A DNA stretch of 64,000 nucleotides, taken from the sequence record PP554575. The stretch is one strand, 5' to 3'. This DNA comes from Escherichia phage PMBT16. Below the pieces are notes generated by a model. It searched no databases, was not told the DNA's origin, and saw only the letters and a program-made list of their open reading frames with translations. Positions 30,528-33,878 of this stretch are shown in pieces; positions within the stretch are counted from its first letter, which is position 1; each line of letters starts with the position of its first letter. The position numbers were made by a program, and so were the translations under genes.

Positions 30528-31853
30528 ATGAGCAAAACTAAATTAGAACTAACCTGGATAGGTAAAAACGAGCGCAAAAAGTTAGAGCCGCACATTTTGT
30601 TAGAAGATTCTAGCAAGTCTTACCACAGCCAGAAAGTGACCGAAAACGATATTTTTGATAATAAACTGATTTTTGGAGATAACTTATTAGCATTGAAGGC
30701 GCTAGAGCAAGAGTATGCAGGCAAAGTGAAGTGTGTTTACATAGACCCACCATTCAATACTGGAAGGGCTTTTGAGCACTACGATGATAGCCTAGAGCAT
30801 TCCATTTGGCTGGGCTTAATGAGGGATAGGTTAGAAATAATTCGTAATCTTCTAAGTGATGATGGGGTAATATTCGTTCACTTAGATGATTGCGAAATGG
30901 CGTATTTAAAAGTTTTGATGGACGAGATTTTTGGTCGTGCAAATCAGTTAAATACCATATCGATGACCACAAATTCCCCTTCGGGATTTAAGGCAACAGG
31001 AGCCACAGTTTTCTCCACAGCAAACTTTTTGCTTGTATATGCAAAAGATCGCACCCAGAAACCGCTTAACAAAATCTATATACCTAAAGGGTATGATACA
31101 GGATATAACAAATACCTATTAAACCCGGATGACCATTATAAAAATTGGACGTGGTGCGGTATTGCCGATGCGTTTGCAAAGGCCAATGGCTATAAAGATG
31201 CAAAAGAAGCCAAGAAAAAACTGCCTGACACATTCGATGATGAATTAGCACAATTCGCAATTGATAATGCAGAACGTGTATTTCAATCTGTTGCAATTGG
31301 TGGTGGTGCTAAAATAAAGAGAAAAGAAACTATCGAGAAGTCAAAGAAAGATATGGATAAGGTCTATGTACATCCAAATGAGGATATTGAAGGATTTTAT
31401 ATCGCAAATGGTAGGCAAATGGTCTTTTACTCCAATAGGCTTTTGGAAATTGACGGGAAAATGCAACCTGCGGAACTAATAACTGATGTTTGGACAGACA
31501 TTAGTTGGAATGGAATAGCAAATGAAGGCGGCGTTAGTTTCAAAAATGGGAAAAAACCAGAAGCGCTTTTGAAGCGGATTTTCGAAATGTGTACGCGAGA
31601 AGGTGATTTGGTATTGGATTCATTTGGTGGTTCGGGAACTACTGCTGCTGTAGCTCACAAGATGAAAAGACGTTGGATCTCAATCGAGCTAGGTGATCAT
31701 TGTCATACCCATATTATTCCGCGCTTGGAAAAAGTGATCGATGGTGAAGATCAAGGTGGTATTTCTAAGTCTGTAAACTGGCAAGGTGGTGGTGGTTTCC
31801 GTTATTACAAACTTACCCCGACCTTAATTGCGAAAGATAAGTCTGATCAATAA
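30528..31853 (+). CDS. DNA methyltransferase, amino-MTase type (N6-adenine or N4-cytosine, beta-class order)
   Basis: Catalytic motif IV VYIDPPFNTG precedes AdoMet motif I LDSFGGSGTTAAVA (circularly permuted beta-class arrangement). Confidence 0.65.
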   Translation: MSKTKLELTWIGKNERKKLEPHILLEDSSKSYHSQKVTENDIFDNKLIFGDNLLALKALEQEYAGKVKCVYIDPPFNTGRAFEHYDDSLEHSIWLGLMRDRLEIIRNLLSDDGVIFVHLDDCEMAYLKVLMDEIFGRANQLNTISMTTNSPSGFKATGATVFSTANFLLVYAKDRTQKPLNKIYIPKGYDTGYNKYLLNPDDHYKNWTWCGIADAFAKANGYKDAKEAKKKLPDTFDDELAQFAIDNAERVFQSVAIGGGAKIKRKETIEKSKKDMDKVYVHPNEDIEGFYIANGRQMVFYSNRLLEIDGKMQPAELITDVWTDISWNGIANEGGVSFKNGKKPEALLKRIFEMCTREGDLVLDSFGGSGTTAAVAHKMKRRWISIELGDHCHTHIIPRLEKVIDGEDQGGISKSVNWQGGGGFRYYKLTPTLIAKDKSDQ

Positions 31854-31866
31854 AGAGTACAATCAA

Positions 31867-32172
31867 ATGATGAAACGTTATAAACCATACACTTTTGAAA
31901 TCGATTTCGAACTTGACGATATGTTCACTGTGGAAGCTCAGGCAGTTGTCCAGTTGCCAGACCCAGAGTGCCGTGATTCTGATGTTGACTATTATGGATT
32001 TAGACAGATCACTGATGTGCATGTTTACCACAACGGCGAAGAGATTGACTTCCACCAACTGCCAAACGCTGTGCGCCACTCAATTTACAAACGTGCAGCC
32101 CGTGAACTAGAGTCCTATCTGGATGCAGCTACAACAGCGGCTGCATTTGCTGAAGAAGTAGGAGGTTTCTGA
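31867..32172 (+). CDS. Hypothetical protein
   Basis: ATG at 31867 downstream of MTase stop; the listed longer start would overlap the MTase. Confidence 0.4.
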   Translation: MMKRYKPYTFEIDFELDDMFTVEAQAVVQLPDPECRDSDVDYYGFRQITDVHVYHNGEEIDFHQLPNAVRHSIYKRAARELESYLDAATTAAAFAEEVGGF

Positions 32173-32567
32173 TGATTACAGGTGTGAAGGTTATCCAATA
32201 CCACTTAACCAAATTGGAAGATGCTGAAAAAGAGCTTGCAGAAGTTCTGAACAGCGGGTATACTTTTCTATCATGCGCCTGCTCAGACACCTACGTTGTG
32301 TGGACACTTATCCGGAAGGAAGAGCCTGCAGGGATCTTGGTGCCAAATCCTAAGATTATTAGTGAGGTGGATGACTACTCTCAGGACGGCCTGCCAGAAG
32401 GTTGGGAAGTATGGGAAGGTGGTGAAAACCCTGCACCAGGTAAGTGGGTAAAATACAAACTACGTAGCGGTGCACAGTACGCTGACTACTCTGATGACCT
32501 AGACTGGAGTCATTCTTCACCAGGATCATCTGCAAGTTCATATGATATCGTAGCTTTTCAGGAATAA
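32172..32567 (+). CDS. Hypothetical protein (131 aa)
   Basis: RBS GGAGG; coupled start. Confidence 0.45.
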   Translation: MITGVKVIQYHLTKLEDAEKELAEVLNSGYTFLSCACSDTYVVWTLIRKEEPAGILVPNPKIISEVDDYSQDGLPEGWEVWEGGENPAPGKWVKYKLRSGAQYADYSDDLDWSHSSPGSSASSYDIVAFQE

Positions 32568-32579
32568 GGAGAAGAAGGT

Positions 32580-33062
32580 ATGTCAGATTTTATGTGGAAA
32601 GTAGGTTACGCAACCCCTGAAATGTGTGAGGCTTGCTTTGTTAAAATAGGCCGCGAGGATATCGACAAAGTGATCCTTAAGTTTCGTGATGTGGCTGTGA
32701 TCGGCAACCGAGTGCTTAAGCACTTAAAGAATCTGAAGCTCACCAAAAAGAAGTTCTTCGGACTTTTCGAAGAGAAGGTTGATGCTTGGACTCATTGCAT
32801 TCAGGAAGCCAAATCTCACTACAGTGCCATCGTTACTCCAGAACGGGTAGCAAAGATGGAAGGATTCATCAACAGCACAGAATTTGAGTGCCTAAAGGCT
32901 GCCCTTGATAGCTATCCAAAGTGCCTCAAACACCTTGACAAGTATGCAGAAAAGGATGGTGAAATGTATCTCACCCTGGACGCATATTATGAGATGCAAG
33001 AAATTTTAAATTTAGATTTGACATTGGTATCCACCGAGTATACAATAGGTATCCGGGTTTAA
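32580..33062 (+). CDS. Hypothetical protein (160 aa)
   Basis: RBS AGGAGAAG. Confidence 0.45.
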   Translation: MSDFMWKVGYATPEMCEACFVKIGREDIDKVILKFRDVAVIGNRVLKHLKNLKLTKKKFFGLFEEKVDAWTHCIQEAKSHYSAIVTPERVAKMEGFINSTEFECLKAALDSYPKCLKHLDKYAEKDGEMYLTLDAYYEMQEILNLDLTLVSTEYTIGIRV

Positions 33063-33067
33063 CACTA

Positions 33068-33097
33068 GGCCCTGCCCGAAAGGGTGGGGCTTTTTGC
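33068..33097 (+). terminator. Rho-independent terminator with GAAA tetraloop
   Basis: CCCTGCCC-GAAA-GGGTGGGG followed by CTTTTTG; identical hairpin recurs at 43791. Confidence 0.65.
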
Positions 33098-33113
33098 ATT
33101 AGGAGACAGCAAA

Positions 33114-33878
33114 TTGAAATTTATCTACAAAGAACACTACCACAAAGGTGTTGTGTGGAGTCTATTTGACGGGTCTGGTGGTGCAGTCATTGACTGGGCA
33201 AAAGCTGGGTACCTGTGCCTGTGCTTTAATGCAGAAGGTGCTGATCACGGCAGTTATGCAGAGGTTATAACCGATCATCCCAACATTCACTATGTGGATT
33301 ATTGGATTGACCCGTGGTTCCCTCAGGAAACTTTTTGCATGTATCCGGCTCCAGACTTTATTCTTGCATTTCCTCCGTGCACGCATTTAGCGGTATCAGG
33401 TGCTGCACATTTTAAGAAAAAGCTGGCTAAGGACCCCATGATCCAAATTAATGCTGTAAAGGATGCTCGGGTTGCGGAAGAGCTGGGAGAGATTTACGAT
33501 TGCCCGTGGCATGTAGAGAATCCTGTGGGTGTTATGTCCACACTGTGGCGCAAACCTGATTACCGTTTTCACCCTTCGGATTATGGCGGGTATTTACCGG
33601 AAGATGATGTAAACCCATGGTTTCCTGAATTTATAGCTCCACGTGATGCCTATCCAAAAATAACTTGCGGCTGGATAGGTAATGGATTTATAATCCCAGC
33701 CACAAAACCTGTCCCGCAAATAGTTGACGTGGTTAGCGGGTATTCCATGCAACACGCCAAGCTGGGTGGAAAGAGTGCAAGAACGAAGATGATTCGAAGC
33801 CTCACACCACGTGGCTGGGCAAAAGCCGTATTCCTGGCAAACGAGCCTGTAGTAAGGAGCAGAATTAATGGGAAGTAA
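33114..33878 (+). CDS. Putative DNA (cytosine-5)-methyltransferase-like protein (short form)
   Basis: Motif I-like LFDGSGG, PC motif AFPPCTHLA (PCT instead of PCQ), ENV-like HVENPVG in canonical order and spacing; no ATG, probable TTG start at 33114 after AGGAGA (or GTG at 33084). Confidence 0.4.
   Translation: MKFIYKEHYHKGVVWSLFDGSGGAVIDWAKAGYLCLCFNAEGADHGSYAEVITDHPNIHYVDYWIDPWFPQETFCMYPAPDFILAFPPCTHLAVSGAAHFKKKLAKDPMIQINAVKDARVAEELGEIYDCPWHVENPVGVMSTLWRKPDYRFHPSDYGGYLPEDDVNPWFPEFIAPRDAYPKITCGWIGNGFIIPATKPVPQIVDVVSGYSMQHAKLGGKSARTKMIRSLTPRGWAKAVFLANEPVVRSRINGK

Follow-up and report, generated by a model that had tools for sequence, protein, structure and literature searches.

Described relatives and the locus of phage PMBT16

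That phages use orphan methyltransferases to counter restriction is textbook knowledge. Two genes of this kind, referred to below as gene A and gene B, are located in a stretch of 64,000 nucleotides (nt) from the Escherichia phage PMBT16 (sequence record PP554575; this whole stretch is called the window), and characterised relatives are available for each of them. The relatives of gene A are the Mod subunits of type III restriction systems; in EcoP15I, the Mod dimer is held together by the N-terminal and catalytic domains, Mod2 acts as a methyltransferase on its own, and the C-terminal domain contacts Res and is used neither in dimerisation nor in catalysis (PMC4490356). The relative of gene B is the Dcm protein of K42, a phage with 95% identity to phage KarlJaspers (Bas06): mutants of K42 escaping the retron Ec86 carried changes in the 711-bp dcm gene, expression of K42 Dcm raised the level of 5-methylcytosine (5mC) in multicopy single-stranded DNA (msDNA) in vivo, as measured by mass spectrometry after liquid chromatography (LC-MS), and triggered the retron, and K42 Dcm C82A/E128A/K175A/K176A caused neither the rise in 5mC nor the retron trigger (preprint 10.1101/2023.08.16.553469).

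The window belongs to a Vequintavirus (rV5-like E. coli phage); its positions 30000-36000 are 99.2% identical to phage DrSchubert (Bas50) and 97-99% identical to ~100 other rV5-like Vequintavirus phages. GenBank records of these relatives label gene A as "putative N6 adenine methyltransferase" and gene B as "Dcm-like C5 cytosine methyltransferase" or "site specific DNA methylase", and the two are real, ordinary and previously annotated DNA methyltransferase genes. The genes rIIA/rIIB and a PIF1/Dda-like helicase gene flank the pair on one side, and genes of a primase/helicase and a DNA polymerase on the other; the gap between gene A and gene B is 1.26 kb and contains three small open reading frames (ORFs). 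An earlier sequence-only reading of this DNA had described two methyltransferase-like genes of different chemistry in the replication module, namely a beta-class amino-methyltransferase with DPPF ahead of FGGSG and, ~1.2 kb downstream, a short C5-like protein with FDGSGG, PC (PCT) and ENP motifs and without an ATG start, and this description agrees in all these respects with the results given here: the first enzyme is an amino-methyltransferase descended from a type III Mod, the second is of the C5 type, and the flanking genes confirm the replication module. Comparison of the sequences suggests, with fair confidence, that gene A and gene B are two independent orphan methyltransferases situated among the replication genes, and that both probably methylate the newly made phage DNA.

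Gene A, a truncated Mod of bacterial origin

The features of gene A are as follows.

30528..31853, + strand: gene A, orphan beta-class N6-adenine DNA methyltransferase, C-terminally truncated type III Mod of 441 amino acids (aa) (PF01555, PADLOC MTase_III)
30744-30755, + strand: DPPF motif, residues 73-76
31623-31637, + strand: FGGSG motif, residues 366-370
between 31843 and 31844, + strand: scar of an 11-nt deletion, shifting the frame onto the TAA at 31851-31853 (DNA alignment with the E. coli Mod gene of locus L012)
31844..31866, + strand: frameshifted relic of the lost sequence coding for the C-terminal domain (alignment with E. coli Mod)

The motifs DPPF and FGGSG follow one another at a distance of ~290 aa, which is the beta-class order with the recognition region in between. 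The Pfam search clearly indicates the relatedness of gene A to PF01555 (N6_N4_Mtase; 144.8 bits with a cut-off of 26.7, E 4.8e-42), the top PADLOC model is MTase_III PDLC03636 (E 2.5e-204), and the best sequence matches in the PDB are the type III Mod subunits 6k0w (H. pylori Mod) and 4zcf (EcoP15I Mod). The match to the type III Mod profile is not full-length, since gene A covers only positions 2-444 of the 575 in PDLC03636; the E. coli Mod protein P0273 spans positions 2-572. Gene A shares with the Mod subunits of EcoP15I (4zcf), H. pylori (6k0w) and E. coli (P0273) the PF01555 core, the N-terminal region and the middle segment. No Res (helicase-nuclease) gene adjoins it in the window, where its neighbours are the PIF1/Dda-like helicase gene and small ORFs; gene A is therefore an orphan derivative and not part of a working type III system.

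A protein search with gene A found thousands of homologues from several bacterial phyla, most of them 560-600 aa in length and aligning to 99% of the query with 60-75% identity. The closest bacterial relative, the 567-aa P0273, is 96% identical to gene A at the aa level, and its gene precedes a Res gene, whereas gene A lacks one. Only 21 aa differ between the two proteins, 7 of them within the middle (recognition) region (residues 160-320), so the target site is probably shared with E. coli Mod. At the DNA level, a chromosomal gene ~95% identical to gene A is present in 24 genomes out of 5426 complete ones of E. coli, and an 80-90% match in another 5. The nt identity of ~95% to the Mod of a restriction system points to a recent capture of gene A from a host-species defence system. 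The lowest GC content of the central window (0.402 versus ~0.44-0.46) is found at 30001-32000, covering most of gene A, which is consistent with a foreign origin.

In the DNA alignment of positions 31600-32250 of the window with the E. coli Mod gene of L012, the identity of ~95% extends up to 31843. The relic beyond this point, read in another frame, gives ..INKEYN.., matching VINKEYNPEML of P0273, and the homology stops at ~31866-31868, where the next phage gene begins (ATG 31870). As judged from this alignment, the C-terminal domain of ~125 aa was removed by the 11-nt deletion together with the loss of homology. The missing segment sits where EcoP15I Mod has the Res-contacting C-terminal domain. 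A PD-(D/E)xK nuclease-like fold is predicted for the domain lost from gene A, and no sequence match to this domain was found in the PDB.

In E. coli and Acinetobacter, homologues of gene A directly precede a gene encoding a Res protein of 910-933 aa (PADLOC REase_III, E 9e-191), and a DrmD-like SNF2 helicase gene lies upstream of these Mod-Res pairs, with variable defence cargo in between. The islands of E. coli (L012:4106-14464) and Acinetobacter (L015:5366-14571) have the same conserved frame, in which the DrmD-like SNF2 helicase gene is followed by cargo, Mod and Res, the cargo consisting of Abi_2 and AIPR or of AAA_21 and DUF4276; such islands may form a subtype of their own among the type III-like systems, serving as a hotspot for defence genes. 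The ARMADA II system of enterohaemorrhagic E. coli was considered as a donor of gene A and rejected, since its effector is a DUF1998 helicase and not Res.

Gene B, a short C5 methyltransferase of a large phage family

The features of gene B are as follows.

33114..33878, + strand: gene B, short "Dcm-like" C5-cytosine DNA methyltransferase of 254 aa with a TTG start (fold, motifs, phrog_757)
33165-33182, + strand: FDGSGG motif, residues 18-23
33372-33383, + strand: PPCT motif, residues 87-90
33516-33524, + strand: ENP motif, residues 135-137

Gene B is a minimal C5-METHYLTRANSFERASE and a member of a large phage family. It matches phrog_757 (E 4.7e-87), and the family comprises more than 3,500 clusters at 90% identity and ~1,000 at 50%, the proteins being mostly ~210-260 aa long. 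Phage records with a member number 1,505; Vequintavirus, Dhillonvirus, Drexlerviridae (with Klebsiella phages), RB49-like phages, Phapecoctavirus and Certrevirus are among them. In a lambdoid prophage of E. coli, a further member lies upstream of ninG, rusA and an antiterminator gene.

In an alignment of 103 sequences, composed of the window protein and 102 representatives, Cys89 is kept in 98, Glu135 in 102, Asn136 in 93, Pro137 in 101, Lys182 in 96 and Arg228 in 98; this family-wide conservation indicates that the motifs of gene B are not chance matches. Motif I is FDGSGG, and distant members keep one Gly only (LYDFTGE, LFDYTGI); motif VI, E135-N136-P137, has Pro instead of Val; motif VIII QxRxR is absent, and a conserved RDAYPK(K)TC stands in its place. 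The protein has the three-dimensional fold of C5 methyltransferases, with only ~40 aa between the strand of motif VIII and the C-terminal helix, which leaves almost no target-recognition domain. Compared with the catalytic domain of DNMT3A/DNMT3B, M.HhaI and M.HaeIII (PF00145), gene B is ~70-220 aa shorter, lacks the canonical QxRxR and contains, unlike DNMT3A/B and the bacterial C5 enzymes, a conserved insert of 30 aa (YGGYLPEDD..RDAYPK) ahead of the motif-VIII strand. Searches against PDB sequences, with the single sequence and with a profile, gave only matches with E ~0.1-1 to HaeIII and DNMT3B over motifs I-IV; 17 of the 26 aligned relatives of gene B match PF00145 at E<=1 (best 1.3e-6). 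The classification of gene B is based on the fold, on these family-level Pfam matches and on the characterised homologue. The ratio of non-synonymous to synonymous substitution rates (dN/dS) among phage copies of gene B is 0.01-0.06.

The characterised homologue, K42/KarlJaspers Dcm (bas06_0055 in KarlJaspers), is 54% identical to gene B over 235 aa (E 3e-86) and belongs to the same phrog_757 (E 6.2e-86); both proteins are short phage orphans, although K42 and KarlJaspers belong to Drexlerviridae and the phage with gene B to Vequintavirinae. The 236-aa bas06_0055 has exactly the residues mutated in K42 Dcm (C82, E128, K175 and K176), and C82, E128 and K175 correspond, with the same spacing, to C89, E135 and K182 of gene B. 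The chemistry expected of gene B is also that of E. coli Dcm and M.EcoRII (CCWGG), from which the public annotation borrows the Dcm name; gene B differs from them in showing no detectable similarity in the recognition domain and no NCBIfam match of the Dcm type, and its length of 254 aa can accommodate only a minimal recognition segment.

In a lambdoid E. coli prophage (L019:5494-7747), a PF05869 Dam-type methylase gene is found two genes upstream of the member of the gene B family. The combination of an adenine with a cytosine methylase gene is also seen in KarlJaspers and Vequintavirus and thus recurs in phages unrelated to one another; it has already been noted in a paper on a related Certrevirus phage.

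Adenine methylation in the sister phage Bas51

Phage Bas51 (WalterGehring) is 97.4% identical to the window, and nanopore sequencing of wild-type virion DNA gave 1405 N6-methyladenine (m6A) calls in GATC, 509 in GTAC and 576 elsewhere; in the T83P methylase mutant the respective numbers were 35, 511 and 349 (PMC12548924, PLoS Biol 2025). The Bas51 genome contains 703 GATC and 258 GTAC sites, corresponding to 1406 and 516 adenines, and, since the calls nearly equal these counts, both motifs are essentially fully methylated. Four methylases are annotated in Bas51, namely bas51_0176, bas51_0200 and one orthologue each of gene A and gene B. The product of bas51_0176, a 177-aa NPPY protein (L007:38092-38625, − strand) encoded outside the window, is the published GATC enzyme and the trigger of retrons Asa1/Squ1. 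The assignment of this role to gene A was tried and rejected: its orthologue bas51_0070 has C, G and E at the positions of the mutated residues D69, D79 and T83, which fit bas51_0176 exactly, so that the GATC enzyme is bas51_0176 and not gene A.

The product of bas51_0200 is a 272-aa gamma-class protein (EPSAGRGSF...GNPPF; L011:4070-4888, − strand) with no Pfam match and no PDB sequence match. The known GTAC enzyme, M.HpyAXII, is likewise of the gamma class, and an attribution of GTAC methylation to gene A was dropped, as bas51_0200 is at least as good a candidate. The ~350 other m6A calls are independent of the GATC enzyme, and the candidates for them are again gene A and bas51_0200. A literature search for methylome or restriction-digest data on rV5 gave nothing usable.

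The observed/expected frequencies of sites in the Bas51 genome are 0.98 for GATC, 0.59 for GTAC (z ~-11), 0.69 for CCWGG and 0.56 for CTAG. The value for GTAC across the whole window is 0.66; the motif is strongly under-represented in both, though every GTAC is reported to be methylated, whereas GATC is at expectation and the values for CCWGG are 0.69-0.76 across the window and Bas51. Host-like biases, such as that seen for CTAG (0.56), confound these frequencies and make them uninformative.

Proposed roles and alternatives

Gene A would be an N6-adenine methyltransferase dependent on S-adenosylmethionine (AdoMet) that the phage took over from a type III(-like) Mod-Res system of bacteria. Its N-terminal region and catalytic core are retained, as is the middle segment (~160-320, the recognition region of the beta class), the C-terminal domain of ~125 aa is gone, and the enzyme would mark the same site as E. 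coli Mod. Having no Res partner in the phage, it would therefore methylate only, and would pre-immunise the progeny DNA against that restriction family. In gene B, Cys89 would serve as the nucleophile and Glu135 as the protonating residue, and the enzyme would produce 5mC by analogy with K42 Dcm, perhaps at CCWGG-like sites; the supposed effects are the protection from EcoRII-type enzymes and the exposure to defences that sense methylation, retron Ec86 being an example.

Several points weigh against this reading of the two genes. The target CCWGG was assumed for K42 Dcm from E. coli Dcm, with only msDNA mutants in support (10.1101/2023.08.16.553469), and gene B contains no target-recognition domain like that of E. 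coli Dcm; the specificity of gene B may be other than CCWGG. The counterpart of K176 of K42 Dcm is Ile183 in gene B, at a position that varies across the family. The window protein of gene B misses the thresholds of Pfam PF00145 (no match at E<=1), NCBIfam and PADLOC. As for gene A, its truncation may leave room for reduced or altered activity. The only assigned motif of Vequintavirus, GATC, belongs to bas51_0176 outside the window, and the GTAC enzyme could be gene A or bas51_0200; a palindromic 4-mer is, moreover, atypical for a type III Mod. Finally, Vequintavirinae are reported to be "exceptionally susceptible" to the restriction systems tested in the BASEL paper (PMC8594841).

The suggestion of the earlier reading that the two enzymes serve self-methylation as an anti-restriction strategy holds in part. 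Self-methylation is real in this phage group, as the m6A of Bas51 demonstrates, but the GATC methylation is made by a methylase outside the window. With the Mod of an E. coli Mod-Res system as its nearest relative, gene A has a plausible anti-restriction function, and protection against the type III-like family from which the gene came is likewise plausible; given the sensitivity of Vequintavirinae to the tested restriction systems, any such protection must be narrow. A more specific version, which we offer tentatively and regard as possible rather than probable, is that gene A is a "disarmed" Mod from the type III-like system of the host species located downstream of the DrmD-like SNF2 gene, and represents a tailored counter-defence against one class of islands: it would keep methylation and recognition and drop the domain at the Res-contacting position, marking the progeny DNA while being unable to help the host Res.

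It is unlikely that the two methyltransferases serve the phage's own DNA transactions, such as replication timing, packaging, transcription switching or mismatch-repair evasion, instead of restriction evasion. Such a role would fit the position of the genes within the replication module, where the last 11 nt of gene B overlap the primase/helicase gene (starting at 33868), the high sensitivity of these phages to the tested restriction systems (PMC8594841) and the observed/expected value of GATC, which gives no sign of selection around this site; yet the nearest relative of gene A is the Mod of a restriction system at ~95% nt identity, as expected after a recent capture, no member is known to have a regulatory role, and the two roles are not mutually exclusive.

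A lower probability still is given to gene A being a decaying remnant, that is, a captured Mod broken by the 11-nt deletion that no longer methylates DNA. The C-terminal ~125 aa present in nearly all bacterial homologues are indeed missing, the frameshifted relic persists, and one bacterial Mod copy of 442 aa comes from a locus that a TnsA-like insertion has disrupted (for which reason this copy was also rejected as an independent short form). Every catalytic motif of gene A is nevertheless intact, and the substitutions among six Vequintavirus copies, calculated with exclusion of pairs having <=5 substitutions, give dN/dS of 0.05-0.13; in the informative phage–phage pairs, 19-23 synonymous changes stand against 4-6 non-synonymous ones (dN/dS 0.05-0.08). 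All six aligned copies have the same 441-aa frame. Mod copies without the C-terminal domain also occur in other phage contexts, namely in a second Vequintavirus-type contig and, at a different locus (PhoH-Mod-ClpP), in another phage contig, and dimerisation and catalysis of EcoP15I are independent of this domain (PMC4490356). These values indicate that gene A is under purifying selection and is not decaying.

It is very improbable that gene B is something other than a plain 5mC methylase of DNA, whether by transferring another group (e.g., carboxymethyl from carboxy-S-adenosylmethionine, Cx-SAM) or by acting on RNA or tRNA in a Dnmt2-like manner, since, although fold similarity does not discriminate between the cofactors, K42 Dcm, 54% identical and of the same PHROG, gave 5mC in DNA by LC-MS in vivo, and the family is found in small prophages with no link to tRNA; given the same report of plain 5mC, the earlier suggestion that gene B may be a modified or non-canonical enzyme is not supported.

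With gene A as a Mod-derived adenine methyltransferase and gene B as a 5mC enzyme, the importance of the locus beyond correct annotation is small, both genes being named in the public records of near-identical phages. The new points are modest: the truncation scar of gene A and its ancestry in the host species, the nuclease-like fold predicted for the lost domain, and the identity of the GATC enzyme and retron trigger with a different gene. Gene A offers a clean, datable case of a phage capturing part of a restriction system of the host species, with 95% nt identity and a visible deletion scar, and is one of only two candidates for the GTAC methylation and the ~350 other m6A calls of Bas51. 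The rV5-like phages are used for therapy and typing, and the set of hosts that restrict them is influenced by their methylases. Retrons are triggered by related methylases of phages, namely K42 Dcm and the GATC enzyme (177 aa) of Bas51, and such methylases thereby expose the phages to methylation-sensing retrons.

Start of gene B and neighbouring features

The region directly ahead of gene B contains the following putative signals.

33018..33046, + strand: sigma-70-like promoter match TTGACA-17-TACAAT, 11/12, inside the end of the preceding ORF (consensus scan)
33067..33096, + strand: GC-rich hairpin (33067-33092) with a GAAA loop, followed by a T-run, intrinsic-terminator-like, directly upstream of gene B (terminator scan)
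33101..33105, + strand: Shine-Dalgarno sequence AGGAG, 8 nt ahead of the TTG of gene B (read from the sequence)

No in-frame ATG precedes motif I of gene B, and the start favoured by comparison is TTG 33114, 8 nt past AGGAG. The same start is annotated in phages DrSchubert, JeffSchatz, JohannBauhin, MaxBurger and WalterGehring, and it also fits the N-terminus MDFIYK of an 80%-identical homologue. The alternative GTG 33084, which would give the longest ORF, was rejected, as this codon lies within the 3' arm of the strong hairpin. The RNA fold of the hairpin has an energy of -21.8 kcal/mol (z -4.3), and none of 200 shuffled sequences folds as well. The putative promoter, the terminator-like hairpin and the TTG start might together keep the expression of a potentially harmful methylase low.

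The ORF directly 3' of gene A (31870-32172, 100 aa) belongs to phrog_4240, whose function is not known, and shows weak matches to PHROGs labelled "DNA methyltransferase" (phrog_1573, E 8e-5; phrog_2060, E 8e-3); by eye, it has no similarity to the lost C-terminal domain of Mod. At least 16 records of "Campylobacter phage" (e.g., MG065655, 140 kb) match the E. coli phage region 30000-36000 or gene B; the gene B product of MG065655 is 99.2% identical to that of the window, and the "Campylobacter" host labels look doubtful.

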